A stretch of DNA of 64,000 nt from positions 52,588-116,587 of the forward strand of contig JAHDRA010000012.1 of the NCBI GenBank assembly GCA_018433525.1. Reading direction: 5' to 3'. Within the stretch, counting starts at the first letter, position 1; each line of letters begins with the position of its first letter. Positions 21,862 through 44,822 of this stretch are shown here, piece after piece. The notes beneath the pieces are model-generated. The model did not search any database, was not told where the DNA came from, and was given only the letters and a program-made list of their open reading frames with translations. The translations under genes were made by a program, and so were the position numbers. The DNA is from Paludibacteraceae bacterium. Its GTDB lineage: Bacteria; Bacteroidota; Bacteroidia; Bacteroidales; Paludibacteraceae.

Positions 21862-22935
21862 TTAACCTTTTCGTTTTTCTGAAGCTGCTTTTATGCTTGA
21901 AAAATACATGCCAAAAGACCGATACAGGAAATGAGACCATTTTCCAAATGGAACAATAATTATAGCCCATTGAGCCAAAACGGTTAAATGAACGATATAC
22001 ATCCATACATTATTGTCTATCATATGGGTATCGATAAATAAACGTACAAGGAAAGCTGTAAGCCCCATAAGCATAAGCCATATAACAAACAGCCAGTCGG
22101 AAGGCTGCGAAAATTTGTTCAGTGCCTTTGCTTTCCTAATTCGACTTGAAACAAAATCGGCAGTAATGACAAATACAAAAAAACTTTCCACATAACCCAA
22201 CACTACTACAAAGAAACTTTTTGTGCCAAACCAGTCTAAAAATACGGTTGTGAAAAGCAGCGAAAGATAAGCCAAAACCAGAATAAAATGCTCCAGCCAC
22301 CGAAAATTATCTTCTTTATCACAATCTCGGGCGCGTTTTTGAGTGAACATGTGAACAAACAGATCCGGTAATGATTTTATGTAAATTTTTAGATTTGCTT
22401 TTACTTTTGGTCTTAAAATGGTAAAATTCCACATCCTGGCTATATTGGGGATAAAAATTATTGCGAGCACTGCAAAAACCACATACATTTCAAAAAGATG
22501 TCCATAATGCATCATTTCTGCCAATTGAAATGACATGGCATTACCCAAAACAAGTACGGCAATAAATACCATTATCAGAGCAGAAATAGTAAATGTAACG
22601 GAACGATAAAGCAAACCCGAAAGTCCCGTCCAGTCATAAACTGAAGTTAACCATCGTCGCAAGGACATCATGAGTTCTCCCGGATTGGCTGTTTGAGGAC
22701 AATTTTCGGTACATTCACCACAATAATAGCATTCCCATGGTTTTAAAGAAGATTTAATATCATTTTCAAGTCCAAGACTGCTAAGTCTTACCATTTCGCG
22801 AGGAAAAGATTCTTCCGGTGTGGACAGTGAACATACGGCAGTACAGGTACCGCAATTGTAACAGGCGTTGAAATTTACTGCTCCGTATTTCTTCAATTTA
22901 TCCTGAAATGCAGGATTAATTTTTGATGCCATCAT
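21862..22935 (-). CDS. QmoC-like subunit: N-terminal HdrC-type 2x[4Fe-4S] domain fused to a NarI/HdrE-like multi-helix membrane domain
   Basis: 357 aa. The two cluster motifs are CYNCGTCTAVC and CYYCGECTENCP. At least 5 hydrophobic helices follow, with conserved His (HYGHLFE, WLEHFIL, IVHLTV, KWSHFLYRS). Its start overlaps the upstream stop (ATGA). Confidence 0.8.
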   Translation of the reverse strand: MMASKINPAFQDKLKKYGAVNFNACYNCGTCTAVCSLSTPEESFPREMVRLSSLGLENDIKSSLKPWECYYCGECTENCPQTANPGELMMSLRRWLTSVYDWTGLSGLLYRSVTFTISALIMVFIAVLVLGNAMSFQLAEMMHYGHLFEMYVVFAVLAIIFIPNIARMWNFTILRPKVKANLKIYIKSLPDLFVHMFTQKRARDCDKEDNFRWLEHFILVLAYLSLLFTTVFLDWFGTKSFFVVVLGYVESFFVFVITADFVSSRIRKAKALNKFSQPSDWLFVIWLMLMGLTAFLVRLFIDTHMIDNNVWMYIVHLTVLAQWAIIIVPFGKWSHFLYRSFGMYFSSIKAASEKRKG

Positions 22936-23210
22936 TTGTTCAATTTATAGGTAAAATATTCGTCATTGTCATCAATTTCTCCCACTGCAACGTCGCCATA
23001 TTTAATCAGCGTCATCAAATAAAATGTAACATCCTCTTTTGACATGGATAGTTTTTCCGATAGTTGGGGAATGGTCATTTCTCCATTTTTCAGGGCATCA
23101 ATGAGTGCTTTTTTAATCCTGACAAATTCTTTAAGATTTTCTTTTGCCTTTTCGGGAATACCTTGTTTGTCCCTTAAATATTTGGCCGTTTTTCCTATTT
23201 CTGCTTCCAT
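22932..23210 (-). CDS. Small winged-helix-like protein embedded in the Hdr/Qmo-like operon
   Basis: 92 aa. It has a helix-turn-helix-like segment MTIPQLSEKLSMSKEDVTFYLMTLIKYGDV. It is translationally coupled to the QmoC-like gene by a 4-nt overlap. The fold assignment is tentative. Confidence 0.5.
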   Translation of the reverse strand: MEAEIGKTAKYLRDKQGIPEKAKENLKEFVRIKKALIDALKNGEMTIPQLSEKLSMSKEDVTFYLMTLIKYGDVAVGEIDDNDEYFTYKLNK

Positions 23211-23218
23211 TATTTTTT

Positions 23219-24949
23219 TTATTGAACCAGTGCATCTATCATACTAAAAATCTCCTTATCGGAATAGCCAATCAAATCAATAGCATTGGGTACGCATACA
23301 GGAGCGCACATACCGCAACCCTTGCATACCGATTTGTTGACTACAGCAATTATTTTCCCATCAATTTCTTTTTGTTCAATTGCTTCAAAAGGACAAGCTT
23401 TTAAACATTCACCGCACCAAACACATGAATTACCGTTAATTTCAGCAACTATCGGCTCCGTTTCTACCAATCCGTTACTGATGGATGAAAAGGCCTTTGT
23501 GGCAGCAGACAAGGCCGAATTGACCGATTCGCTGATATTTTTTGGCCCTTGGCAAGTTCCGGCCAGTGTTATTCCATCAATCACCGTTTCCACCGGACGC
23601 AATTTCATGTGAATCTCGTTGTAGAAATTATCTCTGCCTTTTGGCAGTTTAAAAAGTTGACCGATCGACTGATCAATTCTGGGTAACATTCCGGTTACCA
23701 ACACCACTAAATCGGCATCCAGAAGAAGTTCTTTATCGGAAAACAGTAAATCTTTAACTTTCAGGGAAGTTTTTTTATTCTTGAAACTGACTTCAGGAGG
23801 AAAATCATCATGAAACTGGATAAAAATATCCCCATTCTGTAAAGCTTCGTCATAAAGTAATTCCTGTTTGCCGTAAGTGCGAATACCCCGATGAAGATGA
23901 AAATTGCGTATCCCCTTGAATTTCTTTTTTGTTTCGATAGCAGTATGAATTGTCGAAATACAGCAGAAACGCGAACAGTATTTATTCTCACCTTCGGATT
24001 GACGACTTCCCACGCAATAGATATAAGCAATGTCGTGAATTTCTTTTCCGTTGTATAAAAGTGTTTTACCTGTCGATTGATCTGTCAGTTTTTTAAAATC
24101 GGGCAAAGAAATTACATTCTCGTTATTGAGATAGGAAAATTCGCCTCGTTGCGGAATATAATGATCAAAACCTGTAGCAATCACTACAGAACCTACGTTA
24201 ATTTCCATAGTTTCTCTAAGATTGTCAACAGGCTGATGTTTTTTTTGAAGAGTCAGCGTGAAATTTCCAATGCTGCCTTTTGAAGAAACGACTTCGGTAC
24301 CTGTGAGAATAGAAATATTTTCGTGTTGCAGCAAATCGTTATGAATACGTTGAACAAGCTCCGAACCCTTTTCATTTGTCATGAAAAGCGATCCCCATTC
24401 AGCCACATGCCCTCCAACGGTATTTTCTTTTTCAATAAGCACTACAGACATATTTTTTTCGGCAATGGAAAGAGCTGCTTTCATTCCCGCCATTCCTGCT
24501 CCGATGACTGCAATTGCTTTCTCTGCTTCAAACTTATTGGGGTACAAAGCTTCTGCGTAACGCGATTTTGAAATGGCTGCCCTTACCAGTCGAATCGCTT
24601 TTTCGGTAGCTCCTTCTTTATCGTCCGAGTGTGCCCAAGAAGCCTGCTCACGAATATTGGCATGAACGTAGGTATATTTGTTCAAACCGGCTGTTTCAGT
24701 TACATTTCTAAAAGTAACCAAATGCAGTTTTGGAGAGCAGGATGCCACTATGACTCCATCCAACTGATATTGATGAATATCTTCCACCATTTCCTTCTGA
24801 TTGCTATCCGAACATGCAAACATGGTGGTTTTAGCTAAAACGACACCCTCTTCATGTTCAATTGCCTGACGTACTTTTTCTACGTCGACATAATCGGAAA
24901 TATTTCCACCACAATGACAGATATAAACGCCTAAATTCTTTTTCATCAA
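23219..24949 (-). CDS. HdrA/QmoB-like FAD- and FeS-containing oxidoreductase
   Basis: 576 aa. The N-terminus has GVYICHCGGNISDYVD, the FAD fold is AVIGAGMAGMKAA, and the C-terminus carries 2x[4Fe-4S] (CVWCGECLKACP, CKGCGMCAPVCP-like). Confidence 0.85.
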   Translation of the reverse strand: MMKKNLGVYICHCGGNISDYVDVEKVRQAIEHEEGVVLAKTTMFACSDSNQKEMVEDIHQYQLDGVIVASCSPKLHLVTFRNVTETAGLNKYTYVHANIREQASWAHSDDKEGATEKAIRLVRAAISKSRYAEALYPNKFEAEKAIAVIGAGMAGMKAALSIAEKNMSVVLIEKENTVGGHVAEWGSLFMTNEKGSELVQRIHNDLLQHENISILTGTEVVSSKGSIGNFTLTLQKKHQPVDNLRETMEINVGSVVIATGFDHYIPQRGEFSYLNNENVISLPDFKKLTDQSTGKTLLYNGKEIHDIAYIYCVGSRQSEGENKYCSRFCCISTIHTAIETKKKFKGIRNFHLHRGIRTYGKQELLYDEALQNGDIFIQFHDDFPPEVSFKNKKTSLKVKDLLFSDKELLLDADLVVLVTGMLPRIDQSIGQLFKLPKGRDNFYNEIHMKLRPVETVIDGITLAGTCQGPKNISESVNSALSAATKAFSSISNGLVETEPIVAEINGNSCVWCGECLKACPFEAIEQKEIDGKIIAVVNKSVCKGCGMCAPVCVPNAIDLIGYSDKEIFSMIDALVQ

Positions 24950-24954
24950 TCTTA

Positions 24955-26253
24955 TTAATGTTGAATTAAGTAACTGATTGCTTCGGACGAAGCCGAACCG
25001 GCAGATAGAATGGAATCGGGAATATCCATTGGACCGGATGCCGTACCGGCAACGAAAACTCCATCTATATTTGTTTTAGCCGGACTTCCCAGTAAGTCGC
25101 TCTGCCAAATGAAATTCAAAGAATCAAATTGCAACATTTCGCCATCAAAAATTTGATGAACTGACTGATTGGACAACATTCCTACCGACAATACCACCAT
25201 ATCGTGTTCGGCTTCTTTCACTATTCCTTCCTGAATATCTTCATAACGCAGTATTAAATTCCCATTTTCTTTTTCGGAAATTTTTCCAATTTTTCCTTTT
25301 ACAAAATTGACACCCATATCTTTGGCTTGCTGGTAGAATTCTTCAAAGCCTTTGCCGAAAGAACGAATATCAATGTAATAAATGGTAATGTCTGCCATTG
25401 GAAGCGCACCCATTAACAATTGTGCCTGCTTCATGGAATACATGCAACATACTTGTGAGCAAACAGGATTACCAACGCTGTCGTCGCGCGAGCCGGTACA
25501 AAGAACATAAGCAATCTGATCGGGTATTTTTCCGTCGCCCGGTCTCAGAATAGTGTGATAAGGTCTGGTAGGAGCTATTTCTCTTTCCATTTGCATGGAA
25601 GTAACCACATTTTTGTATTTTCCATAGCCGAATCGTGGAATTTTAAGCGGATCAAACAGTTGAAAACCTGTAGCCAGTACGACTGTCTTTACCTGTAATT
25701 CAAAACATTCCGTTTCCATAGTAAAGTCGATGCAGTGAGTAGGGCAAACCCTTTCGCATGCGCCGCACAAAGTACATTGTTCAAGGTCGATAACAGCAGC
25801 TTTGGGATTGGCTATGCTGAAAGGAATGTAGGCAGCTTTTCGACCGACCAGACCAAACTGATATTCATCCCGAACACTAACGGGACAAGCTTTTTCACAC
25901 AATTGGCAAGCCGTACAGTCTTCCACATGAACGTAACGCGGATTCTTTGTAATCTTTGCTATAAATAACGATTCGGTTTTTTTTACAATACTTGTAACTT
26001 CACTTTCAGTAAAAACTGTAATATTGGGATGACGGGCAATTTCAGAAACTTTGGGTGTGGTAATACAGGCAGCACAATCCAATGTTGGAAAAACTTTGCT
26101 CAACAAAATCATTTTACCACCAATAGAATGATCTTTTTCTACCAATAGCACCTTATAACCGTTGTTTGCAATATTCAGGGCAGTTTCGCCGCCGGCAATA
26201 CCCGCACCAATAACCAGCGCATCGAATTCTATTTTTTTTCTTCTCTCCTCCAT
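24955..26253 (-). CDS. HdrA/QmoA-like FAD- and FeS-containing oxidoreductase
   Basis: 432 aa. It has ALVIGAGIAGGETA, FPTLDCAACI and an inserted ferredoxin (CTACQLCEKACP, CTLCGACERVCP). Confidence 0.85.
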   Translation of the reverse strand: MEERRKKIEFDALVIGAGIAGGETALNIANNGYKVLLVEKDHSIGGKMILLSKVFPTLDCAACITTPKVSEIARHPNITVFTESEVTSIVKKTESLFIAKITKNPRYVHVEDCTACQLCEKACPVSVRDEYQFGLVGRKAAYIPFSIANPKAAVIDLEQCTLCGACERVCPTHCIDFTMETECFELQVKTVVLATGFQLFDPLKIPRFGYGKYKNVVTSMQMEREIAPTRPYHTILRPGDGKIPDQIAYVLCTGSRDDSVGNPVCSQVCCMYSMKQAQLLMGALPMADITIYYIDIRSFGKGFEEFYQQAKDMGVNFVKGKIGKISEKENGNLILRYEDIQEGIVKEAEHDMVVLSVGMLSNQSVHQIFDGEMLQFDSLNFIWQSDLLGSPAKTNIDGVFVAGTASGPMDIPDSILSAGSASSEAISYLIQH

Positions 26254-26256
26254 TGT

Positions 26257-26670
26257 TTATTTCTCCGAATAACGGGTTTTAATCAAATATTCATTCAGAC
26301 TGCGCACTTGCCTGACAAAAGCATCGCTACAAACGGAGCAAAGAGCAGCCATTCTCAAGCGGGCGGGATCCAAATTGTTCTGTTTCATTTTTTCGTGGGT
26401 CATTGCTACTACTTTACCGGTTTTTTCGGTGCAGCTTTCGCCAAAAACGCAATCGGTACCATCTGCAGCAATGAAAACGCCATCGAAGCCTTTTTCGAAA
26501 GCATGCAGGATCCAATTGGGCTTTATTCCGCTTGAACATGGAACAGTTATGGTATAAACGGTTGGCGGATAATGCAGTTTAAGCAGCCCGGCCATATCAA
26601 TAGCCGGATCTGAAATTTTCTCGGTAGAAAATACCAGAATTTTTGCATTTTTCTTTACGAAGCTCGTCAT
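26257..26670 (-). CDS. MvhD/FlpD-like hydrogenase iron-sulfur (delta) subunit family protein
   Basis: 137 aa. ILVFSTE...VPCSSGIKPNWILHAFEKGFDGVFIAADGTDC resembles the methyl-viologen-reducing hydrogenase delta subunit fold. A 3-nt gap separates it from the next gene. Confidence 0.75.
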   Translation of the reverse strand: MTSFVKKNAKILVFSTEKISDPAIDMAGLLKLHYPPTVYTITVPCSSGIKPNWILHAFEKGFDGVFIAADGTDCVFGESCTEKTGKVVAMTHEKMKQNNLDPARLRMAALCSVCSDAFVRQVRSLNEYLIKTRYSEK

Positions 26671-26681
26671 GGAGGAAAAAA

Positions 26682-26933
26682 TTATTTCTTTTTCAGATAC
26701 AATTTATAATATCCGTTTTCCTCTACCATGCCAAGAAACTCGTTTCCTTGCTTGTTGCACCATTTTGGCAAATCATTCTTTGTGCCTTCATCGGCCGACA
26801 AAACTTCCAAAATTTCTCCCGATTGTATGGTTCCAATTGCTTTTTTAGCTTCCAAAAGTGGGCCAGGGCAGGCAGTTCCGCGTGCATCTACCGATTTGGC
26901 TACGGTAAGATTTTTCAATTCTTCGGTGGTCAT
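26682..26933 (-). CDS. tusA: TusA-family sulfur carrier protein
   Basis: 83 aa with the canonical DARGTACPGPLLEAKKAI (Cys-Pro-x-Pro) motif. Confidence 0.9.
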   Translation of the reverse strand: MTTEELKNLTVAKSVDARGTACPGPLLEAKKAIGTIQSGEILEVLSADEGTKNDLPKWCNKQGNEFLGMVEENGYYKLYLKKK

Positions 26934-26971
26934 AATTCTATAATTTTTAATGTTTGTTTATGGGTTATTAC

Positions 26972-27541
26972 TTATATCATCCATTGCATGGCGCTTTCGC
27001 CGGCATCTGCCACAAAAGTTGCTGCTCCTGCAATTCGGAAATGTGGATAATCGATAAATTCTTCTTTTTTGAAGCCCATCAAATTCATGGTCATTTCGCA
27101 AGCCGTAATTTCTATTCCCAATTCGGCGGCTTCCTTAAACATTTCGTCCAATGAAAGTACATGCTGTTTTTTCATCAAATTTTTCATCATCATGGGTCCC
27201 ATACCACACATATTGTGTTTGGACAATTTCAGTTTCCCATATCCTTTGGGCAACATGCATCCGAACATTTTGGAAACAAAGTTTTTCCCTTTCACAGTTT
27301 TCTTGGGATCACGTAATGCTGCCAATCCCCAGAATGAGAAGAACAGTTTTACCTTTGTATCCATAGCTGCCGCCGCCAGCGATATAATCATTCCTGCCAT
27401 AATTTTGTCCATGTCGCCTGAGATAATTGCTATCGACAATTGGTCTTTTTTGGCTGAATTTTCCAATTGCGTTGTTTTGGCTTTCAAGTTTTCCAGTTCA
27501 GCCAAAAGTTTTTCCATGGTTATTTCATTTGATTTTTCCAT
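26972..27541 (-). CDS. DsrE/DsrF-like family protein with N-terminal coiled-coil
   Basis: The track ORF extends to 27742. Its first 67 codons are AT-rich and low-complexity and abut the recO stop. I place the start at the ATG at 27541 (MEKSNEITMEKLL...). SIAIISGDMDKIMAGMIISLAAAAMD...FFSFWGL is typical of DsrE-like proteins. Confidence 0.7.
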   Translation of the reverse strand: MEKSNEITMEKLLAELENLKAKTTQLENSAKKDQLSIAIISGDMDKIMAGMIISLAAAAMDTKVKLFFSFWGLAALRDPKKTVKGKNFVSKMFGCMLPKGYGKLKLSKHNMCGMGPMMMKNLMKKQHVLSLDEMFKEAAELGIEITACEMTMNLMGFKKEEFIDYPHFRIAGAATFVADAGESAMQWMI

Positions 27542-27741
27542 AATAATAGTATTTTTAAATTGATTTCTGCACAAATTAACGAAAAAATTTATGAATCTGC
27601 TATATCTTACAGGAATATTTATTCGGAAAAATTCAAAATAAATCGGATAAACAACTTTTGAAGAAGGTTGTCGGAAATAGCTTTTTTGTATCCGCAAAAA
27701 AAAAATTAAAAAGTCAATAATTCCCATATTGACAAACGCCA

Positions 27742-29174: not shown

Positions 29175-29828
29175 TTACAGTTTCTCGCCAAAAGCCAAAT
29201 CTCCGGCATCCCCCAAACCAGGAATGATGTAAGAATGACTGTTTATTTCGGGATCGATGGCAGCAGCCCAGATAGTGGTTATATTTTCAGGGAAATGGGT
29301 AGTGAGATAATTTATCGCATGGCGGCTGGCAATAACCGTAGCGATATGAATTTTAGAGGGAAATCCTTTGGTGGTTAGCGCTGAAAAAGTCTGCTCCATC
29401 GAGCTTCCGGTAGCCAGCATGGGATCAGTGAGAATCAACGTTTTTCCTTCCAAACCGGGAGAAGCAATGTATTCTACAAAAATTTCAAAATTTTCCGCAT
29501 TCCTGTATTTTCTGTAAGCTGAGACAAAAGCATTTTCCGAGCCATCGAAATAATTTAAAAAACCTTGATGGAAAGGAAGGCCGGCACGAAGAATAGTAGA
29601 AATTACCACTTTTTCGTCGATAACTTTCACGGGAGCAATCCCTAAAGGAGTCTGAACTTTTTCCTCCACATAATCCATAGCTTTGCTGATTTCATAAGCC
29701 ATGATTTCCCCAATTCTCTCCATATTCCGCCTGAAACGCATGGAATCTTTCTGAATTTCTACCGACCGGATTTCTTTTATAAACTGATTTAAAATTGAAT
29801 TGTTATCGGACAGATTTATAATTTTCAT
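29175..29828 (-). CDS. upp: Uracil phosphoribosyltransferase
   Basis: 217 aa with the PRPP-binding motif LILTDPMLATGSS and C-terminal GLGDAGDLAFG. Confidence 0.95.
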   Translation of the reverse strand: MKIINLSDNNSILNQFIKEIRSVEIQKDSMRFRRNMERIGEIMAYEISKAMDYVEEKVQTPLGIAPVKVIDEKVVISTILRAGLPFHQGFLNYFDGSENAFVSAYRKYRNAENFEIFVEYIASPGLEGKTLILTDPMLATGSSMEQTFSALTTKGFPSKIHIATVIASRHAINYLTTHFPENITTIWAAAIDPEINSHSYIIPGLGDAGDLAFGEKL

Positions 29829-29889
29829 ATATCGACAAACATCAAATAATTATTTTCTCTTCTCTCTCTCCATCAAAACAACAGTTTTT

Positions 29890-31545
29890 TTACTGTTTAT
29901 CCTTTTCTCTTATTTCCACACGGCGAATTTTTCCGCTGATGGTTTTGGGCAGTTCGTCCACAAATTCGATAATACGGGGATATTTATAGGGAGCGGTAAC
30001 TTTTTTCACATGATTTTGAAGTTCTTTTACAAGCTCCTCTCCTGCTTTATCCTTGTATTCTTTGGCAAGTATTACCGTTGCTTTCACTACTTGACCGCGC
30101 AATTCGTCGGGTACTCCGGTAATGGCACATTCAACAACTGCAGGGTGAGTCATCAGTGCACTTTCCACTTCGAAAGGCCCGATACGGTAACCGGAACTTT
30201 TGATCACATCATCCGTTCTACCAACAAACCAGAAATAACCCTCTTCATCTTTCCAAGCCATATCGCCGGTATGATAAACATTTCCCCTGAAAGCTTCACG
30301 TGTCAGTTCTTCGTTCCGATAATAACCTTTGAACAAACCCACAGGATAATTTTTGTGCAGCTTGATTACAATTTCCCCTTGTTCACCCACTTCAGCCGAT
30401 CGTCCATCCGGCATTTGAATATCCACATCGTAATGAGGTCCCGGCAATCCCATCGAACCGGGTTTTGGTTCAATCCAAGGAGTGGTATATACACAAACTG
30501 TCGTTTCACTTTGCCCGTAACCCTCGTGCAGTTTAATGCCTGTCAACTCGTAAAGTTTTTCGTAAACGGAAGCATTCAGGGCTTCTCCTGCCGTTGTAGC
30601 ATATTCCAGAGAAGACAAATCATACTTGCTAATGTCTTCCCTGATCAGAAAACGGAAAATGGTTGGAGGCGCACAAAGAGAAGTTACATGATATTTCTCG
30701 ATCATTTCGAGCATATTTGCGGGAGTAAATTTTTCGTGGTCATATACAAATACACAAGCACCCACAATCCACTGTCCATAAATTTTCCCCCAAAGTGCTT
30801 TCAACCATCCGGTATCGGCTATCGTCAGATGAATACTGTTTTCATGCAGATTGTGCCAGTATTTGGCTGTAATAATATGTCCCAACGGATAAAGACAATC
30901 AAGCAACACCATTTTTGGATTACCTGTAGTTCCGGACGTAAAACTGATAATCAACGGATCGGTATTTTCATTCACATGATGAATGGGTGTAAAGGGAGTC
31001 GCCTCATCAATTCCCTTGTGAAAATCGAGCCAATTTTCCGGCACGATAGGCCCAATGGAAATCAGCATTTCAACAGTAGGGGATTCAGCCATTGAATCGT
31101 TAATGTGGCTTACAATCGGTTCTTCTCCAACTGCAACTATTGCCTTAATATCAGCAGCATTGTTTCGGTAGATCAAGTCTTTCGGCGTAAGCAAATGCGT
31201 GTCTGGAATAGTAATAGCGCCCAATTTATGTAAAGCCAGAATAGTAAACCAGAACTCATATCGACGTTTGAGTATGGCCATCACCACATCGCCTTTTCCT
31301 ATACCCAAACTTTGGAAATAAGAAGCAGTCTGGTCACTGTATTTTTTCATTTCAGCAAAAGAAAATTTTCTGCATTCTCCCTGATCATTGGTCCAAATCA
31401 TGGCGAGTTTGTCCGGCTCTTTGGCAGCCCACTCGTCTATCACGTCGTAAGCAAAATTAAAATGCTCGGGAACGATCAATTGATAATTAGCCTTAAAATC
31501 ATCAAAATCCTTAAATTCAGTTTGTTTTAAATATTTTTCCAACAT
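29890..31545 (-). CDS. AMP-forming acyl-CoA synthetase/ligase (medium-chain type)
   Basis: The AMP-binding motifs are SFTSGTTGNPK, GYGQSET, YHTGDMA and ISGKIRR. The track start at 31581 is a TTG. I prefer the ATG at 31545 (MLEKYLKQ...). Confidence 0.88.
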   Translation of the reverse strand: MLEKYLKQTEFKDFDDFKANYQLIVPEHFNFAYDVIDEWAAKEPDKLAMIWTNDQGECRKFSFAEMKKYSDQTASYFQSLGIGKGDVVMAILKRRYEFWFTILALHKLGAITIPDTHLLTPKDLIYRNNAADIKAIVAVGEEPIVSHINDSMAESPTVEMLISIGPIVPENWLDFHKGIDEATPFTPIHHVNENTDPLIISFTSGTTGNPKMVLLDCLYPLGHIITAKYWHNLHENSIHLTIADTGWLKALWGKIYGQWIVGACVFVYDHEKFTPANMLEMIEKYHVTSLCAPPTIFRFLIREDISKYDLSSLEYATTAGEALNASVYEKLYELTGIKLHEGYGQSETTVCVYTTPWIEPKPGSMGLPGPHYDVDIQMPDGRSAEVGEQGEIVIKLHKNYPVGLFKGYYRNEELTREAFRGNVYHTGDMAWKDEEGYFWFVGRTDDVIKSSGYRIGPFEVESALMTHPAVVECAITGVPDELRGQVVKATVILAKEYKDKAGEELVKELQNHVKKVTAPYKYPRIIEFVDELPKTISGKIRRVEIREKDKQ

Positions 31546-31650
31546 ATTTTGAATAGAATAAATTACTAACGATAAGTTCAATTAATAAAATTTGCTACGT
31601 CTTTTAAAATTATTTTTTATCCGAAAAAAGCTTTCTTTCGAGACTATTAA

Positions 31651-34877: not shown

Positions 34878-34912
34878 AACTCTCTCAAAATTAATTTTTG
34901 AGGGAGTTTTTT
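34878..34912. terminator. Bidirectional terminator between gap and rplQ
   Basis: AACTCTCTCAAAA-ttaa-TTTTTGAGGGAGTT followed by TTTT. Confidence 0.7.
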
Positions 34913-34989
34913 ATTCAATTACTCCCAACAAAAAAGGGAACAGCTTGCGTGGTCCCCTTTTTAATATGATTAACAAAAAATCTTCAATT

Positions 34990-35520
34990 TTATTCTTCTG
35001 TCGTTGGTGCCTGATTTTCGGCAGGTGCCTGTTCAACAGGTTTAGGAGCCGAAACTTCCGAAGTGGCAGGTGCTGCCTGAACTTCAGTTTCTGCTTTCTT
35101 TCTAGAAGAAGAACGACGTGTACGAGTTGTTTTCTTGGTAGTTTTATCCTTGAGCATGTTTTCGTTGTAATCAACAAGCTCAATAATGCACATTTCTGCA
35201 TTATCTCCCAAGCGGAAACCCGTCCGGAGAATACGCGTATAACCACCCGGACGATTTGCAATTTTCACCGAAATATTTTGAAACAATTCGGTTACAGCTT
35301 CCTTGTTCTGCAAATAACTGAAAACCAAACGTCTTGATTGAGTCGTATCTTCCTTGGCTCTGGTCAAAAGAGGTTCAACGTAAACTCTTAAAGCTTTAGC
35401 TTTAGGAAGTGTAGTGGAGATTCTTTTGTGCAAAATCAACGATGAAGCCATATTGGACAATAAAGCTTTCCTGTGAGAAGACGTACGACTTAAATGGTTG
35501 AATTTCTTATTATGTCTCAT
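34990..35520 (-). CDS. rplQ: 50S ribosomal protein L17
   Basis: 176 aa, starting [24 protein letters not shown]. It is the last gene of the alpha operon. It carries a C-terminal tail of about 55 aa rich in Ala, Pro, Glu and Thr. Confidence 0.95.
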
Positions 35521-35525
35521 TTCAT

Positions 35526-36518
35526 TTAATCTTTATCTAATTTATACTTTGAAACATCCATCCCGAAGGAAAGATTTAAACTAATCAATTTTTCTTCCAG
35601 TTCGGCGAGCGATTTTTTGCCGAAATTACGGAACTTCAACAGGTCGTTGCGTTGAAAACTGCAAAGTTGTCCCAATGTTTCAATATCGGCAGCTTTCAAA
35701 CAATTCAATGCTCTGACTGAAAGTTCCAAATCGGTAAGTTTGGTTTTTAACAACTGACGCATGTGAAGAACCTCTTCGTCAAATTCGCTTGTTGTTTCAC
35801 CTTCTACTGTTTCAACTTCTATTTTCTCATCAGAGAACAACATGAAATGCTGAATCAGAATTTTTGCTGCCTCTTTCAATGCTTCCTTAGGAGGAATAGA
35901 ACCATCGGTTAAAATTTCAATTACTAATTTTTCGTAATCTGTAACCTGTTCCACACGATAATTTTCGATGGCATATTTCACGTTACGGATAGGTGTAAAA
36001 ATTGAATCGATGGGAATAACGCCAATTTCGAGATTGGAAGTTCTGTTTTCTTCAGCCGGTACATATCCACGTCCCTTGTTGATGGCAATGTCAATCTGAA
36101 AACTTCCTTTCGGATCAAGTTCGCAAATAATAAGCTCCGGATTGAGAACTTCAAAACCGGTAAGATGTTTACCAATATCTCCGGCTTTAAAAACTGCTGT
36201 ATCCGAAACGGTAATCGAAACTTTTTCGTTATCAACACCTTCTACCACTTGTTTGAAACGCACTTTTTTCAGGTTGAGAATGATATTGGTTACATCATCA
36301 ATCACTCCCGGAATGGTAGAATATTCATGATCTATTCCTTCGATTTTGATAGAAGTGATGGCAAAACCTTCCAAAGAAGACAAGAGAATACGGCGCAATG
36401 CATTGCCGATAGTAATGCCATAGCCGGGTTCCAGAGGGCGAAATTCAAATTTTCCATGAAAATCGTCTGCCTCCAGCATAATAACCTTTTCGGGTTTTTG
36501 AAATGCTAATATAGACAT
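35526..36518 (-). CDS. rpoA: DNA-directed RNA polymerase alpha subunit
   Basis: 330 aa with N-terminal and C-terminal domains ([20 protein letters not shown]). Its operon position is conserved. Confidence 0.97.
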
Positions 36519-36529
36519 GAATTTACAAA

Positions 36530-37135
36530 TTATTTAGAGTATAACTCAACGATTAAATGTTCTTTGATATTTTCAGGGATATCCTCTCTTTCGGGGATAT
36601 GCAGATAAGTTCCTGAAAGCGTTGAAGCATTCCATTCAATCCACGGATATTTGCTGTGGTTGAAACCGCTCAACGAATTCTGAATCACTTCCATTGATTT
36701 GTCTTTTTCGCGTACACCCACCACCTGACCAGGTTTAACCTGATAGGAAGGAATGTTAACTACCTTACCATCCACTGTGATGTGTTTGTGGTTTACCAAC
36801 TGACGGGCAGCAGCACGTGTAGGTGCAATTCCCATTCTGAAAACCAAATTATCAAGACGCGATTCCAGCATTTGCAACAAAATTACGCCTGTTACGCCGG
36901 AAGCACGACGTGCACGTTCATAAATGATATGAAACTGCTTTTCAAGAACTCCGTAGGTATATTTAGCCTTTTGTTTTTCGCGCAGCTGAATACCGTATTC
37001 AGAAGTTTTCTTTCTTCGGTTGTTCCCGTGCTGTCCGGGAGGATAGTTCTTTTTGCTCAATACTTTATCGGGTCCAAAAATAGCTTCGCCAAACTTACGT
37101 GCTATTTTTGTTTTAGGTCCAATATATCTTGCCAT
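36530..37135 (-). CDS. rpsD: 30S ribosomal protein S4
   Basis: 201 aa, starting [21 protein letters not shown]. Confidence 0.97.
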
Positions 37136-37297
37136 TTTTTCTAAAATTGATTGTTATAATTAATTTATTCGGGTATCCACATTGTAAAAACTGCTTCAGC
37201 CGCCATTGCAGAGAGGAAAAAACTTGCAATGAATTTTTTAAATTTTTACCTGTCGGCATTACCCTTTTTGATTCATACAAAAAGTGGAAAATTGATA

Positions 37298-37687
37298 TTA
37301 TACTCTTCTCCTTTTGGGTGGACGACAACCATTATGTGGAAGAGGTGTAACATCAACAATCTCAGTTATTTCGATACCTATTCCGTTAACGGTTCGGATA
37401 GCTGATTCGCGTCCATTTCCCGGCCCTTTGACATAGGCTTTTACCTTACGTAAACCCAAGTCGAAAGCTATTTTTGCACAATCCTGAGCTGCCATTTGCG
37501 CAGCATAGGGAGTGTTTTTCTTTGAACCTCTGAATCCCATTTTTCCGGCAGAGGACCAAGAAATAACTTCACCATTTTCGTTGGTAAGAGAAATAATAAT
37601 GTTGTTGAAAGATGAATGAACGTGCAATTGACCTGCGGCATCCACTTTCACTACTCTTTTTTTGGCTGCAACTGTTTTCTTTGCCAT
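37298..37687 (-). CDS. rpsK: 30S ribosomal protein S11
   Basis: 129 aa with [18 protein letters not shown]...[10 protein letters not shown]. Confidence 0.97.
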
Positions 37688-37735
37688 AATTATTTATATC
37701 TTCTTTTTCTGATGATTATAATTTCCAGTTATCTG

Positions 37736-38116
37736 TTATTTGGTTGCTTTTTTCTTGTTTGCAACAGTTTTCTTCTTCCCTTTTCGAGTGCGGGCATTGT
37801 TTTTGGTGCTTTGACCTCTAACAGGTAAACCGAGACGATGACGGATGCCGCGGTAGCAACCTATATCCATCAATCGTTTAATGTTTAACTGAACTTCTGA
37901 GCGCAAATCTCCTTCTACCTTGTATTCGGAAGAAATTATCTCCCTGATTTTTGCGGCTTGTTCATCTGTCCAGTCTTTCACTTTTATGTCTCTGTCAACA
38001 CCGGCCTTACTTAAAATTTTATTTGCGCTGCTGCGACCAATTCCGAAAATATAAGTCAACGCAATTTCACCTCGCTTGTTTTGAGGTAAGTCTACTCCAA
38101 CAATTCTTATTGCCAT
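37736..38116 (-). CDS. rpsM: 30S ribosomal protein S13
   Basis: 126 aa, starting [27 protein letters not shown]. Confidence 0.97.
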
Positions 38117-38142
38117 ATTAAAATTTTTTTCATGTAAATTAA

Positions 38143-38259
38143 TTAACCCTGACGTTGTTTGAATCGGGGATTCTTTTTATTAATCACGTAAAGACGACCT
38201 TTTCGGCGAACGATTTTACAATCTTCAGAACGTTTTTTTATGGATGCTCTCACTTTCAT
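38143..38259 (-). CDS. rpmJ: 50S ribosomal protein L36
   Basis: Not in the track because it is under 60 aa. Manual translation gives [38 protein letters not shown] (38 aa), between infA and rpsM. Confidence 0.93.
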
Positions 38260-38275
38260 CTCTGATAGTATTTTT

Positions 38276-38494
38276 TTATTTGTATCTAAATGTAATTCTT
38301 CCTTTGGTCAAATCATAAGGCGATATTTCAACTTTCACCTTATCTCCCGGTAAAATTTTTATGTAATTCATCCTCATTTTGCCGGAAATATGGGCTGTAA
38401 TAATGTGACCGTTTTCAAGTTCAACACGAAACATGGCATTCGATAATGCTTCTATTATCGTACCATCCTGTTCTATTGCTGTTTGTTTGGCCAT
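38276..38494 (-). CDS. infA: Translation initiation factor IF-1
   Basis: 72 aa with [30 protein letters not shown]. Confidence 0.97.
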
Positions 38495-38499
38495 AAAAA

Positions 38500-39285
38500 T
38501 TAAATTGCTCTTTCTCCTAAAACTTGTTCAATGTATTCAAAACTTGATAGTATATCTGCTTTTCCCTGACGAATGGCTACGGCGTGTTCAAAATGTGCCG
38601 AAGGCTTTCTGTCCAGCGTTCGGGTAGTCCATCCATCTCTTTCAAAAACAATATGTCGTGTTCCCATATTAATCATGGGCTCTATGCAAATCACCATTCC
38701 GTATTTCAGCATTACGCCGTTGCCTTTTCTTCCATAATTCGGTACCTCAGGTGCTTCGTGTATCTCTCTACCCAGACCATGACCAACCATTTCACGCACT
38801 ACGGAATAGCCGCGTTGTTCACAATAACTCTGTACAGCATAACCAATATCACCAGTACGATGTCCTTCCTGAGCCTGCTCAATACCTTTATAAAGTGATT
38901 CTTTGGTTGTTTTCAGCAGATTGACAATCTGTTGATCTACTTCTCCAACACAGAAGGTATAAGCAGAATCGCCATGAAAACCGTTGATATAAGCACCACA
39001 GTCAATCGAAATTATATCGCCTTCCTTTAAAAAAACTTTATCAGAAGGAATTCCATGTACTATCTGTTCGTTTACCGAAGTACAGATGGAATTAGGATAT
39101 CCGTTATAATCAAGAAAACTCGGCACTGCACCATGATCACGAATAAATTCATCGGCTATTCGATCAAGTTCCAACGTACTGATTCCGGGTGTAATATGTT
39201 TTGCGAGTTCAGCTAACGTTTTAGCTACCAATTGATTACTGATTCTAAGTAATTCTATCTCTTCTTCCGATTTGAGATAAATCAT
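38500..39285 (-). CDS. map: Type I methionine aminopeptidase
   Basis: 261 aa with metal ligands in the contexts [22 protein letters not shown] and ICIEPM. Confidence 0.95.
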
Positions 39286-39302
39286 TTTTAATGTTATCTT
39301 AT

Positions 39303-40646
39303 TTAATAAGCAGAAACTCCACTTGTTCGTCCTTTGATACGTCCTGACTTCAATAATCCGTCGTAATGTCGCATCAACAAATGACTTTCAATTTGTTGCA
39401 AAGTATCCAACGTAACACCAACTAAAATTAACAGGGAGGTGCCTCCAAAAAATTGTGCAAAGGCATGGTTTACACCGAAAATACTGGCAAACGCAGGCAT
39501 AATGGCAATGATAGCCAGAAATATTGAACCGGGCAATGTAATTCTGGACATAATCATATCAAGATATTCAGCCGTCTTTTTCCCAGGTTTTACACCTGGA
39601 ATAAATCCATTATTACGTTTCATCTCTTCTGCCATCTGCGTTGGATTAATAGTGATAGCCGTATAGAAATACGTAAACAAAATAATCAGGATGGCAAAAA
39701 CAAAGTTGTACCAGAAACCTGTATTATCCATAAAAGCACCAACAAATCCCTGCATTGACTCGGATTTTGAAAATCCAACAATTGTAATGGGAATAAACAT
39801 GATAGCTTGAGCAAAAATTATCGGCATAACTCCGGCTGCATTAATTTTCAGCGGGATATACTGCCTTACGCCACCATACTGTTTATTTCCTACCACACGT
39901 TTTGCATATTGAACAGGAACTTTACGTGTTCCCTGAACCAGCATTATAGAAGCTCCGATAACCAGTAAAAGGAAAAGAATTTCTATAATAAACATGATCA
40001 GACCTCCGCCCACATCGGTCAATCGAGAGGCAAATTCCCTTACAATAGCTTGCGGCAGACGGGCAATAATACCGACTAAAATAATAAACGATATTCCGTT
40101 TCCAATTCCTCTGTCTGTAATTCGTTCACCAAGCCACATAACAAACATACTACCTGCACAGAGAATAATGGTAGAAGTTGCCTGAAAGAAAAAACCTGAT
40201 GGAAGTGCGGAACCAGCCTGCCTTAACTGAACACTTAAATTAATTAAATAAGAAGGTCCTTGCAAGAGAAGAATTCCTACTGTAAGATAACGCGTTATCT
40301 GATTCATTTTTCTTCTGCCACTTTCACCTTCACGTTGCATTTTTTGAAAATATGGTACTGCTATAGTCAGCAACTGAATAACGATAGAAGCCGAAATATA
40401 CGGCATAATTCCCAACGCAAAAATGGACGCATTGGCAAACGCTCCACCTGAAAACATATCCAATAAAGCAAGTAGTCCTCCGCTTGTTTGAGCTTTAAGA
40501 GCTGTTAATGCTCCTGCATCAATACCCGGAAGCACAACATAAGAACCAAAGCGATAAATCATGACAAACAATAATGTTGTCAATAACCTGTTGCGCAAGT
40601 CCTCTATCTTCCAAATATTTTTAAGTGTCTCAATGAGTTTATTCAT
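39303..40646 (-). CDS. secY: Preprotein translocase subunit SecY
   Basis: 447 aa, 10 TM helices, with the GIMPYISASIV motif. Confidence 0.97.
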   Translation of the reverse strand: MNKLIETLKNIWKIEDLRNRLLTTLLFVMIYRFGSYVVLPGIDAGALTALKAQTSGGLLALLDMFSGGAFANASIFALGIMPYISASIVIQLLTIAVPYFQKMQREGESGRRKMNQITRYLTVGILLLQGPSYLINLSVQLRQAGSALPSGFFFQATSTIILCAGSMFVMWLGERITDRGIGNGISFIILVGIIARLPQAIVREFASRLTDVGGGLIMFIIEILFLLLVIGASIMLVQGTRKVPVQYAKRVVGNKQYGGVRQYIPLKINAAGVMPIIFAQAIMFIPITIVGFSKSESMQGFVGAFMDNTGFWYNFVFAILIILFTYFYTAITINPTQMAEEMKRNNGFIPGVKPGKKTAEYLDMIMSRITLPGSIFLAIIAIMPAFASIFGVNHAFAQFFGGTSLLILVGVTLDTLQQIESHLLMRHYDGLLKSGRIKGRTSGVSAY

Positions 40647-40647
40647 C

Positions 40648-41097
40648 TTATGAAATTTTTACTGCCGTTCCACCGGCTCCAACAATTGCATTTTCGGCAG
40701 ATTTTGAAAAAGCATGAGCTTCAACATCTAATTTTACGGTCAATTTTCCGCGTCCTAAGATTTTTACCAACTGATTTTTAGATATAAATCCGGCTTGACG
40801 AAGATCATCGATCCCAATTTTAGATAATTGATTTTCTTGAGCTAAAATTTCTAAAGTATCGATATTGATTGCTTTATATTCAATTTTATTTATATTCTTA
40901 AAACCAAACTTGGGTAAACGTCTTTGAATTGGCATCTGCCCACCTTCAAAACCGATTTTGTGCGCATACCCCGAGCGAGATTTTGCCCCTTTATGTCCAC
41001 GTGTAGATGTGCCCCCCATTCCAGATCCAGAACCTCTACCTTTTCTTTTATTTGATTTTACCGAGCCTGCAGCTGGGGTTAAATTATGTAAATCCAT
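40648..41097 (-). CDS. rplO: 50S ribosomal protein L15
   Basis: 149 aa with KRKGRGSGSGMGGTSTRGHKG. Confidence 0.96.
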   Translation of the reverse strand: MDLHNLTPAAGSVKSNKRKGRGSGSGMGGTSTRGHKGAKSRSGYAHKIGFEGGQMPIQRRLPKFGFKNINKIEYKAINIDTLEILAQENQLSKIGIDDLRQAGFISKNQLVKILGRGKLTVKLDVEAHAFSKSAENAIVGAGGTAVKIS

Positions 41098-41126
41098 ATC
41101 TCCTTTTTATTAAAGATTAAAATTTT

Positions 41127-41303
41127 TTAATCGACTATCTTTACCAAATGTTTAACTTTCTCAACCATTCCCAAAATTTGTGGAGTCGCTTCATGTTCAA
41201 CAACATCATTGATTTTATGTAATCCAAGTGCTTCTAAAGTCAATTTTTGAACTTTAGGAGATTTTATTTTACTTTTAACTTGTTTAATTTTAATAGTTGC
41301 CAT
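41127..41303 (-). CDS. rpmD: 50S ribosomal protein L30
   Basis: Not in the track because it is 58 aa. Manual translation gives MATIKIKQVKSKIKSPKVQKLTLEALGLHKINDVVEHEATPQILGMVEKVKHLVKIVD. Confidence 0.92.
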   Translation of the reverse strand: MATIKIKQVKSKIKSPKVQKLTLEALGLHKINDVVEHEATPQILGMVEKVKHLVKIVD

Positions 41304-41315
41304 GATTATCTGAAA

Positions 41316-41834
41316 TTATCCATTAAAAACCTTATCCAAAGAAACCTTTCTGTTCTGAGCGACAGTGTATGCATCGCGGAGTTCGGAGAGGGCAGCAATC
41401 GTGGCTTTCACCAGGTTGTGAGGATTGGATGAACCCTTTGATTTTGCTAACACATCCGTAATACCTACACTTTCGAGCACTGCACGCATTGCACCGCCTG
41501 CAGTTACTCCGGTACCTGAAGAAGCTGGTTTGATAAAAACGCGCGCACCACCAAATTTTGCTTCCTGTTCGTGAGGAATAGTCCCATTCAGCACCGGCAC
41601 TTTGATTAGATTTTTCTTGGCTACTTCTGTTCCTTTAGCAATTGCTGCGGTAACTTCGCTTGCTTTTCCAAGTCCCCAGCCTACGATCCCATCTTCATTT
41701 CCTACCACCACAATAGCTGAGAAGCTAAAAGTTCGTCCTCCTTTGGTAACTTTGGTTACCCGATTGACAGCTACTAATCTGTCTTTTAATTCTAAATCCG
41801 TTGTTGTTTTTACTCTATTCATCATTTTTGCCAT
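41316..41834 (-). CDS. rpsE: 30S ribosomal protein S5
   Basis: 172 aa with [24 protein letters not shown]. Confidence 0.96.
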
Positions 41835-41840
41835 ACATTC

Positions 41841-42182
41841 TTAAAATTTAAGACCGCCTTCACGAGCAGCATCGGCCAATTGTTTAACTCTACCGTGATA
41901 TAAATAACCATTGCGGTCGAACACTACTTCAGTGATACCGGCTTCCTTAGCAGCCTGAGCAATTAGAGCACCCACCTTACCGGCTTGCTCTTGCTTGGTT
42001 ATTTTTTCCTTAATAGCTAATGACGAAGCTGAAGCCAATGTTATTCCCTTTTCATCATCAATTAGCTGAACATAAATTTGAGCGTTGCTTCTAAATACGG
42101 TCATTCGGGGTCGCTGAGCAGTTCCAAAAATTTTTTTCCGTATATGAGCCTTTATTTTTTGTCTTCTGTCTAATTTTGTCAT
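41841..42182 (-). CDS. rplR: 50S ribosomal protein L18
   Basis: 113 aa with [20 protein letters not shown]. Confidence 0.96.
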
Positions 42183-42203
42183 AACTTCACAAATTTACGT
42201 ATA

Positions 42204-42755
42204 TTATTTACCGGCTGATTTTCCTGCTTTTCTTCGCAGTACTTCACCCTGGAATTTAATTCCTTTTCCTTTATACGGTTCAGGTTTACGGAAAGAACGT
42301 ATTTTTGCACAAACCTGTCCCAAAAGCTGCTTATCGCAACTTTCCAAAATAATCAGCGGATTCTGATTACGTTCCGACTTTGTTTCTACCTTAACTTCGG
42401 GCGGTACTTTTAAAAAAATACTGTGCGAATATCCTAAAGCAAATTCCAAAACCTGACCCTGAGCAGAAACACGATAGCCTACACCTACCAACTCCATAGT
42501 CTTTTTAAAGCCATTAGACACTCCTTCAACCATATTGTTGATCAAAGAACGATACAGCCCGTGCATGGCACGATTTTCTTTCTCATCATCGATGCGGGTT
42601 AAAGTACAAAAACCATCTTTTACTTCAACTGAAATATTTGGATGAATTTGCTGACTTAAAGTTCCCTTAGGCCCGCTTACTGAAACCAAATTGTTTTTTA
42701 TCGTAACGTTGACTCCAGCCGGAATTTTTATGGGTAATTTTCCTATTCTTGACAT
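42204..42755 (-). CDS. rplF: 50S ribosomal protein L6
   Basis: 183 aa, starting MSRIGKLPIKIPAGVNV. Confidence 0.96.
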   Translation of the reverse strand: MSRIGKLPIKIPAGVNVTIKNNLVSVSGPKGTLSQQIHPNISVEVKDGFCTLTRIDDEKENRAMHGLYRSLINNMVEGVSNGFKKTMELVGVGYRVSAQGQVLEFALGYSHSIFLKVPPEVKVETKSERNQNPLIILESCDKQLLGQVCAKIRSFRKPEPYKGKGIKFQGEVLRRKAGKSAGK

Positions 42756-42773
42756 ATCATTTTCCTCCGCCTC

Positions 42774-43559: not shown

Positions 43560-43572
43560 TTTTATTCCTTTT

Positions 43573-44118: not shown

Positions 44119-44120
44119 TC

Positions 44121-44820: not shown

Positions 44821-44822
44821 AA

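Follow-up and report, generated by a model that had tools for sequence, protein, structure and literature searches.

Complexes of the Qmo and heterodisulfide reductase (Hdr) type are central to anaerobic sulfur and energy metabolism, the mechanism of QmoABC being still unsettled. The type I QmoABC of sulfate reducers and green sulfur bacteria combines two HdrA-related flavoproteins and an MvhD module with a membrane subunit in which an HdrC-like 2x[4Fe-4S] domain is joined to a dihaem cytochrome b; it is tied to cytoplasmic sulfur metabolism, and a quinone-coupled confurcation has been proposed for it (PMC3333476). In the canonical version, QmoB ends in an MvhD-like domain and QmoA is a simple flavin adenine dinucleotide (FAD)/[4Fe-4S] protein (PMC4911364, PMC3333476). 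A 'type II' Qmo, present in Vulcanisaeta moutnovskia and Ammonifex degensii, is described as nearer typical HdrA than bacterial QmoAB (Neukirchen et al. 2023, PMC10504309; Chernyh et al. 2020). In this line, a seven-gene module encoded in a 64,000-nucleotide stretch of DNA from a Paludibacteraceae bacterium (contig JAHDRA010000012.1, positions 52,588 to 116,587; hereafter the window) is a widespread, uncharacterised and experimentally accessible relative of Qmo/Hdr. As judged from its genes and their products, the module shares the subunit logic of QmoABC and stands outside canonical Qmo, because its membrane subunit fails the QmoC model, MvhD is encoded by a separate gene upstream of both HdrA genes and does not form the tail of a QmoB-like protein, a 2x[4Fe-4S] ferredoxin is inserted in the QmoA-like protein, an extra winged-helix subunit is present, and the partner genes are tusA and dsrE, not aprBA. 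The resemblance to QmoABC had been pointed out in the first-pass annotation of the window and stands, with two HdrA paralogues and an HdrC/cytochrome-b fusion that matches the NCBIfam qmoC model end to end.

The seven open reading frames (ORFs) occupy the minus strand from 21862 to 27541 (Table 1) with intergenic gaps of 38, 11, 3, 5, 8 and -4 nt, the fourth of which becomes 8 nt if the second HdrA gene begins at an ATG discussed below. In transcription order they encode a DsrE-like protein, TusA, an MvhD-like subunit, two HdrA-like flavoproteins (here 'A' and 'B'), a small winged-helix protein and a QmoC-like subunit, and they form one operon, co-transcription being indicated by the short gaps and the conserved gene order. 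The composition, coordinates, gaps, domain assignments (Pfam and NCBIfam) and separate MvhD gene noted at first pass were all recovered here. Mapping of the seven proteins onto 85 related genome loci (given L numbers below) revealed that tusA lies directly upstream of mvhD in each of the 65 loci with enough flank, that a DsrE-family gene adjoins the cluster in 60 of 60 testable loci, and that the order mvhD, hdrA, hdrA, (small gene), qmoC is constant across the mapped loci. Moreover, three look-ups, in Paludibacteraceae, Petrimonas and Lentimicrobium, returned the same seven genes in the same order between unrelated flanks. Since the same order recurs in 85 related loci with unrelated flanks, the arrangement is far beyond chance, and the seven-gene order passes the conservation check that had been suggested for it.

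The distribution of the module also corrects the earlier impression of a composition peculiar to one Bacteroidota genome, as it is widespread in Bacteroidales and Anaerolineales. The QmoC-like protein has 2277 homologous clusters at 90% identity, the best 120 of which all come from Bacteroidia isolates or metagenome-assembled genomes (MAGs) of Paludibacteraceae, Dysgonomonadaceae, Proteiniphilum, Petrimonas and Lentimicrobium. When one genome was scanned for each species, at least 594 relatives emerged; the best 80 of them, at 58-92% identity, are all Bacteroidota, with 'Porphyromonadaceae sp. NP-X' the closest among the matches listed, so that the gene order is present in at least 80 Bacteroidota species. 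Three Anaerolineales-like loci carry the module with a QmoC identity of 35-38%: two of them (L086 and L088) run in the order ArsR-type regulator, TusA, MvhD, HdrA, HdrA, small protein, QmoC, DsrE, and the third (L087) begins with dsrE, not with the regulator, and has an HdrL-like first HdrA. Its presence in both Bacteroidota and Anaerolineales indicates that the module is old and has been kept intact across two phyla. In the full-text literature no description of this gene combination was found (Appel et al. 2021, BBA Bioenergetics, lay outside that scope), which agrees with the earlier statement that no characterised system has this composition.

Both HdrA-like proteins find their best structural counterpart in methanogen HdrA (5odc_A), 'A' covering residues 145-562 (3e-109) and 'B' residues 3-244 and 314-649 (5e-106), whereas sHdrA (6tjr) is far weaker (2e-38 and 3e-24 against about 1e-106 to 1e-109); no Qmo structure appeared among the PDB matches to the window proteins. 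Unlike in the methanogen HdrABC/MvhADG complex, the four domains of HdrA are divided over two proteins, 29-35% identical to each other. HdrA-like 'A' (432 aa) keeps the thioredoxin-reductase-type FAD domain and the inserted 2x[4Fe-4S] ferredoxin and lacks the N-terminal cluster domain and the C-terminal ferredoxin; HdrA-like 'B' (576 aa) keeps the N-terminal cluster domain (CHCGGNI), the FAD domain and a C-terminal 2x[4Fe-4S] ferredoxin and lacks the ferredoxin insert. Accordingly split are the cysteines, Cys60 and Cys63 of 'A' being the equivalents of HdrA Cys194 and Cys197, for which 'B' has none (LFMTNEKGS opposite FPTNDCSIC in HdrA), and none of the relevant cysteines of either protein varies among 66-74 orthologues. 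Against the HdrA2 model the two proteins reach 477 and 465 bits, below its cut-off of 1100.

In methanogen Hdr, Cys197 from one HdrA protomer completes the N-terminal cluster of the other protomer (PMC9012536), and tandem HdrA genes of anaerobic methanotrophic (ANME) archaea with the same complementary split were interpreted as heterodimers by Chadwick et al. 2022 (PMC9012536). Because the N-terminal domain and Cys197 are likewise divided between the two paralogues of the window, 'A' and 'B' look like an obligate heterodimer, in which 'A' would complete the N-terminal cluster of 'B' with its Cys197 equivalent and contribute the ferredoxin insert as well. The same division between two HdrA copies occurs in the tandem or fused HdrA of ANME archaea and Moorella (PMC9012536), but these and the HdrL complexes are soluble and have HdrBC, MetFV or Fdh as partners, none having been described with QmoC, TusA or DsrE. 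The separate MvhD subunit (PF02662, 95.1 bits against a cut-off of 22.3) aligns to positions 645-770 of the HdrA2 model, the MvhD section at the C-terminal end of that model, and its Cys45, 74, 80, 111 and 114 are invariant among orthologues; neither the ORF list nor the Pfam matches of the window place hydrogenase or formate dehydrogenase genes near it. As for the start of HdrA-like 'B', the ATG one codon past the TTG is the likely one, since the orthologue in L001 has 575 aa; an exact database look-up of the 576-aa form found no identical record.

The membrane subunit aligns over positions 5-359 of the 360 of the NCBIfam qmoC model (NF038018) with 132 bits, below the cut-off of 300; for comparison, a Bacteroidales representative scores 163, an Anaerolineales one 200 and a canonical-type one 306 bits, the identity of the window protein to the last being about 27%. 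Its PDB match is HdrC (7bkb_C, 1e-13), and an AlphaFold2 model (predicted local distance difference test score, pLDDT, 86.8) also gave HdrC for the N-terminal part in Foldseek. For the membrane part NarI chains recurred in Foldseek with probabilities of 0.8-0.96 but weak E values of 0.9-2; Pfam NarI (PF02665) does not match the window protein, though a few of its homologues carry it. The eight cluster cysteines and the histidines H216 and H335 never vary, and H143 and H316 are kept in at least 94% of the Bacteroidota orthologues. The six-helix topology drawn from the hydropathy profile would place one His pair near the outer face (His143 and His316) and the other near the inner face (His216 and His335), the arrangement expected for two bis-His b haems. 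Other conserved positions of this protein are Cys205, which lies in the cytoplasmic loop joining helices 2 and 3 and is invariant in 81 of 81 Bacteroidota orthologues and in alignment A3 and reaches at least 90% in the wider QmoC-like family (A1), and His195, 93% conserved in Bacteroidota; ahead of helix 5 the window protein has 'SQPSDW' where 'SHxxDW' is widely conserved.

The 92-aa protein encoded just upstream of the qmoC-like gene is modelled as a winged helix (AlphaFold2, pLDDT 88), its best Foldseek matches being ArsR/SmtB repressors at a weak level (E 4e-4, template-modelling score about 0.57) and Pfam HTH_5 giving 16.3 against a cut-off of 22. It has neither Cys nor His, its stop codon overlaps the qmoC-like start in an ATGA that points to translational coupling, and a 100%-identical entry exists from a Paludibacteraceae MAG, which assigns the window to this family. 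The separate small gene is missing in 18 loci; in L008, L075 and L061 the second HdrA is longer and its C-terminal 70 or so residues are homologous to the 92-aa protein (phmmer 4e-13 to 5e-11), and the Anaerolineales-like loci have homologous genes for 78-99 aa in the same position (1e-9 to 2e-5). This fusion to the second HdrA in relatives and the conservation across phyla argue for a structural or adaptor subunit and not a free transcription factor. The small winged-helix-like protein of the first-pass annotation thereby keeps its fold, weakly supported by Foldseek, and gains a place as a conserved enzyme subunit rather than a free regulator. A DsrD-like activator was also considered and dropped, Pfam giving no DsrD match and DsrD being absent from the top 50 Foldseek matches, which are of the ArsR/SmtB type.

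Two sulfur carriers open the operon. The DsrE-like protein (PF13686, 152.7 bits) is closest in the PDB to 3pnx (5e-26) and to 2qs7, the DsrE2B of S. solfataricus (3e-15), reaches 66 bits with the DsrE2 equivalog NF047629, below the cut-off of 210, and has a helical extension of about 30 aa at its N-terminus; Cys148 is its sole invariant cysteine (46/46 orthologues), and the protein is probably a DsrE2B-like sulfur carrier. Its reading frame is uninterrupted for 67 codons ahead of the ATG, to 27742, where it abuts the recO stop, but the ATG at 27541 is the real start because the homologues of the three look-up loci have 187-189 aa; an automatic gene caller might over-extend the ORF to 256 aa. 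TusA (PF01206, 87.5 bits against a cut-off of 28.6) has the Cys22 of its CPGP motif invariant in 66 of 66 orthologues and Cys59 kept in 89%; it falls below the cut-off of the E. coli TusA equivalog (45.7 against 78 bits) and gives weak matches to the selenium YedF models (35 against 110 bits).

A natural variant of the module bears on its low-potential side. In 14 loci (including L008:4954-7779 and L075:5011-7788), as well as in the Anaerolineales-like L087:4305-7016, the first HdrA grows to about 930 aa through an extra GltD/NfnB-like module of about 470 residues (Fer4_20 and an NAD(P)-binding Pyr_redox_2), which separates the two CxxCxxCxxxC motifs of the ferredoxin insert without loss of either. 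These loci have the winged-helix protein fused to the second HdrA, and TusA, DsrE, MvhD and QmoC are unchanged. Since the module is nested in the ferredoxin insert, the presumed ferredoxin port of the window complex appears to be wired to NAD(P)(H) in the variant, whose first subunit resembles HdrL of Desulfobacterium autotrophicum with its NAD(P)-binding GltD/NfnB-like insertion.

The expression of the cluster also seems to couple carriers and redox proteins. In 53 loci the cluster is preceded by a divergent gene for a Crp/Fnr-family regulator whose N-terminus bears a CxxC...C motif, and the exact palindrome TGTGA-N6-TCACA is found 51 times in 1.10 Mb of related loci; 46 of these copies lie no more than 320 nt ahead of the first cluster gene. 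The box precedes the cluster in 45 of 61 related loci (e.g. L002, L004 and L033) at a median of about 112 nt from the first gene, which is usually of the DsrE family; only two of the 51 boxes lie between dsrE and tusA. With the box upstream of the first (DsrE-family) gene, carrier and redox genes would share a regulon. Both the Crp/Fnr-type regulator and the box have been lost in the lineage of the window and are missing from L001 and L006 as well; even with one mismatch allowed, the 64 kb contain no match to the box. Here, the stretch of about 100 nt that precedes the dsrE-like ATG is conserved in L001 and L006, relatives at 92% identity, the distal flanks being unrelated, so that this segment is a probable promoter/leader region of the operon. 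The Bacteroidetes -7 element has the consensus TAnnTTTG, and a near-match to it, TTAATTTG, occurs in the segment; generic scans for sigma-70 promoters, terminators and the Bacteroidetes -7 motif gave results no better than shuffles. A 6-bp inverted repeat just past the recO stop (GTCAAT-N9-ATTGAC) was dropped as it is not conserved in the nearest relatives. The ArsR-family regulator that opens the Anaerolineales operons (L086:4189-4527, L088:2886-3362) has the sulfide sensor SqrR as its best PDB match (6e-8); the position of the sensing Cys41 of SqrR is a Trp in these proteins, which have two other cysteines about 70 residues apart.

Other described systems share one or another part of this set. 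The sHdr-LbpA system is an Hdr-related flavin/FeS complex genetically tied to TusA/DsrE carriers that deliver sulfane sulfur (PMC11094781); however, sHdr is soluble, has the CCG subunits HdrB1 and HdrB2, needs lipoate-binding proteins and belongs to (mostly aerobic) sulfur oxidisers, whereas the window module has no CCG protein in cis, has a cytochrome-b anchor and MvhD, and belongs to anaerobic fermenters. The duplicate HdrB/HdrC and lipoate-binding set of sHdr was not encountered, there being no CCG protein in the window, with no search aimed at LbpA. The NADH-dependent persulfide reductase (Npsr) with rhodanese/TusA/DsrE fusions likewise couples a flavoenzyme to carriers of the TusA/DsrE type for the reduction of intracellular sulfane sulfur (PMC7887784), but it is a soluble single chain with a redox-active cysteine, not quinone-linked and unrelated to HdrA. 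The methanogen HdrABC/MvhADG complex shares the MvhD [2Fe-2S] subunit (PF02662) and differs, besides the domain split described above, in its catalytic CCG HdrB, for which the module has no counterpart in cis; with no CCG subunit in cis and the HdrA domains split over two proteins, the module is neither a methanogen-type Hdr nor an sHdr. As for 'type II' Qmo, the closeness of the window proteins to HdrA fits its description, and the text consulted in those sources makes no mention of a TusA/DsrE linkage, a winged-helix subunit or a distribution in Bacteroidales and Anaerolineales.

Altogether, the module may well encode a complex linked to menaquinone and ferredoxin that works, perhaps by bifurcation or confurcation, on the sulfane sulfur bound to TusA and DsrE, a reading to which we give an even chance. 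It follows the first-pass proposal of a quinone-linked, possibly bifurcating transfer of electrons to or from a TusA/DsrE persulfide, which plausibly fits the tight linkage of the carrier genes. The redox core would consist of MvhD, the HdrA heterodimer, the winged-helix subunit and the QmoC-like subunit, anchored in the membrane and equipped with its own sulfur carriers. By analogy with the structure of methanogen Hdr and with the QmoABC literature, two b haems and the HdrC-like clusters would connect the menaquinone pool with the HdrA FAD, and the ferredoxin insert would couple the flavin to ferredoxin, or to NAD(P)H in the variant. As third redox partner, Cys22 of TusA and Cys148 of DsrE would present sulfane sulfur in persulfide (or thiosulfonate) form, as suggested by the gene linkage and by two precedents: sHdr clusters come almost always with TusA and DsrE carriers that deliver sulfur (PMC11094781), and a role in the reduction of intracellular sulfur has been proposed for DsrE-Npsr-TusA fusions (PMC7887784). 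In the reductive direction, menaquinol and reduced ferredoxin would confurcate onto the carrier persulfide with release of H2S, and oxidation of quinol at the outer face would make sulfur reduction energy-conserving, analogous to what has been proposed for Qmo-AprAB. In the oxidative direction, sulfide would become carrier-bound persulfide and the electrons would bifurcate to menaquinone and to ferredoxin or NAD(P)+. Textbook midpoint potentials are about -270 mV for S0/HS-, -75 mV for menaquinone, -320 mV for NAD(P)H and -450 mV for ferredoxin, from which we estimate that the ferredoxin version works near equilibrium in both directions and the NAD(P) version favours the oxidative one. A bolder step, taken tentatively and rather unlikely to hold in full, is to see here a previously unrecognised enzyme class, namely a CCG-free, menaquinone-linked, flavin-based bifurcating sulfide/persulfide oxidoreductase, whose partners would be, from high to low potential, menaquinone, the sulfane sulfur on TusA/DsrE and ferredoxin (NAD(P)+ in the variant).

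Several points weigh against a sulfur-acting complex of this kind. On the same potentials, menaquinol and NAD(P)H are not readily able to reduce S0/HS-, so that the reductive direction fits the variant poorly. The seven proteins have no recognisable site for S-S chemistry and the operon no CCG protein, and we know of no HdrA-type FAD that reacts directly with thiols. The function is read from gene linkage, full-text searches having turned up no expression, biochemical or genetic data on it, and the gene absences hold for the 64-kb window. Moreover, modelling supports a NarI-type fold of the membrane part weakly (Foldseek E about 1, no Pfam NarI match).

Since no S-S site is recognisable, appreciable weight has to be given to an alternative in which the module is the electron-input part of a true Hdr-type disulfide or trisulfide reductase whose catalytic HdrC and HdrB (CCG, with a non-cubane cluster) are encoded elsewhere in the genome; one thioredoxin-reductase-domain cluster of HdrA would dock the QmoC-like subunit and the other HdrCB, with HdrB reducing the TusA/DsrE persulfide or a heterodisulfide. 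Within the window, Pfam found no CCG domain (PF02754) on any of the seven proteins, a CCG protein from a related locus used as query had no match in the six-frame translation of the 64 kb, and apr, sat and dsr are missing among the large annotated ORFs, all as the first-pass annotation had it. Its further step, that no CCG means no Hdr-type enzyme, holds for the window in cis and fails for part of the relatives, as 6 of the 85 genome loci have, at a distance of 1-8 kb from the qmoC-like gene, a pair of HdrC-like (228 aa) and CCG-type HdrB-like (355 aa; PF02754 32.6 against a cut-off of 20.6 bits) genes. In three of these the pair is downstream on the same strand (L019:11765-13554, L021:1795-3585 with a 66-nt gap, and L050:7286-9073), the others being L049, L061 and L071. 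A search from the side of HdrB, over metagenome loci at least 8 kb long, found the whole TusA/Qmo-like module within 10 kb in 8 of 33 (L090, L091, L093, L095, L097, L102, L103 and L107), and Qmo variants that join QmoAB to HdrBC have been described (PMC10504309). The link to HdrCB thus exists but is not obligatory: most loci, including the window and the three Anaerolineales-like ones, have no CCG gene within 10 kb, most members of the HdrB family lie away from the module and the more distant ones sit in hdrCBA clusters of their own, and an HdrC-type domain is already supplied by the QmoC-like subunit. We regard this alternative as a minority possibility to be taken seriously.

More distant explanations concern the carriers and the partner pathway. 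The complex might be a sulfur-independent ferredoxin (or NAD(P)H):menaquinone oxidoreductase with a logic like that of Fix/EtfABCX, TusA and DsrE being passengers that serve, for example, cofactor or tRNA thiolation; its identifiable ports are indeed quinone, the ferredoxin insert and, in the variant, NAD(P)H, with no sulfur-reactive site evident. Passengers, however, would not be expected to persist in 65 of 65 (TusA) and 60 of 60 (DsrE) loci of two phyla at a QmoC identity of only 35-38%, nor to share a Crp-type box upstream of the carrier genes, and the MvhD port would be left partnerless, so that we find it improbable. To a similar degree we doubt that the carriers hold a thiosulfonate (from thiosulfate or tetrathionate) or, in the manner of YedF-type TusA/DsrE proteins, a selenium species, and that the complex cleaves this adduct reductively. 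DsrE3A and TusA of Metallosphaera carry thiosulfonate (PMC4175335), but the window DsrE is DsrE2B-like and not DsrE3A-like; genes for TauE/SafE-type anion exporters flank the module, but in a minority of 6-8 loci only; and the weak TusA matches to the selenium YedF models are far under their cut-off (35 against 110 bits). It is very improbable indeed that the window encodes an ordinary QmoABC serving an AprAB/Sat pathway located elsewhere in the genome. The subunit logic is the same and automated pipelines call the homologues 'QmoC', but the QmoC equivalog gives 132 bits against a cut-off of 300, passed by the canonical-type representative with its 306; MvhD has a gene of its own, a ferredoxin insert interrupts the QmoA-like protein, and the two HdrA-like proteins show the very strong resemblance to methanogen HdrA that has been described for 'type II' Qmo. 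Moreover, no apr- or sat-like family recurs in the flanks of the 85 loci, and the hosts are fermentative Bacteroidales and Anaerolineales. What does recur beside the module are extra DsrE genes (22 and 7 loci), rhodanese genes (4-14) and the TauE/SafE permeases (6-8); the HdrC/HdrB pair is often followed by a gene for an Mrp/ApbC-type ATPase.

The presumed substrate carriers are encoded in the same operon as the complex, the low-potential port comes in two natural versions (ferredoxin insert and NAD(P)H module), and the module occurs in cultivable Bacteroidales that do not reduce sulfate (such as Petrimonas and Proteiniphilum), which makes the hypothesis of bifurcation or confurcation in Qmo directly testable. 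If the link to carrier-bound sulfane sulfur is true, very common 'fermenters' of digesters, sediments and peat would join sulfane-sulfur cycling by a route to which the standard marker genes are blind, and if the bifurcating oxidoreductase is true, the abundant fermentative Bacteroidales and Anaerolineales of digesters, sediments and wetlands would have an energy-conserving link to the sulfur cycle that present surveys based on marker genes (dsr, apr, sox, sqr, psr) overlook.

Table 1. Genes and upstream region of the TusA/DsrE and Qmo/Hdr-like module, in transcription order (positions in the window)
Feature	Position	Strand	Length and basis
DsrE-like protein	26972-27541	-	189 aa from internal ATG; PF13686 1e-44
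TusA	26682-26933	-	83 aa; PF01206 5e-25; GTACPGP
MvhD-like [2Fe-2S] electron-transfer subunit	26257-26670	-	137 aa; PF02662 4e-27
HdrA-like flavoprotein 'A'	24955-26253	-	432 aa; Pyr_redox_2 and Fer4 families
HdrA-like flavoprotein 'B'	23219-24949	-	576 aa (TTG) or 575 aa (adjacent ATG); YICHCGGNI; Pyr_redox_2 and Fer4 families
Winged-helix protein	22932-23210	-	92 aa; AlphaFold2 model and Foldseek
QmoC-like subunit: HdrC-type domain and membrane domain	21862-22935	-	357 aa; Fer4 dicluster; NCBIfam qmoC
Predicted promoter/leader	27542-27640	-	about 100 nt conserved with L001 and L006

The other large ORFs of the window that were checked are housekeeping or polysaccharide-utilisation genes. Nearby genes read from their translations are glgB-like, HIT, greA, recO, rpsT, upp and an acyl-CoA synthetase, and Pfam matches elsewhere in the window include GcvT, SusC/SusD, GH31, PheS, ArgS, RNase Y, IspG, GAPDH and a sigma-54 activator. 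Between 5174 and 13240, genes for a SusD-like protein (465 aa) and a SusC-like TonB-dependent receptor (1050 aa) lie beside one for a GH31 protein (820 aa) as a small polysaccharide-utilisation locus. From about 34900 to 53400 on the minus strand, many small co-directional ORFs and one of 707 aa are laid out, as judged by ORF sizes, like a str/S10/spc/alpha cluster of ribosomal-protein and elongation-factor genes. Finally, a 431-aa ORF on the plus strand (29800-31095) runs antisense to the gene of a 563-aa AMP-binding acyl-CoA synthetase (29890-31581, minus strand), is rich in Phe, Ile and Cys, and is probably a spurious shadow ORF.

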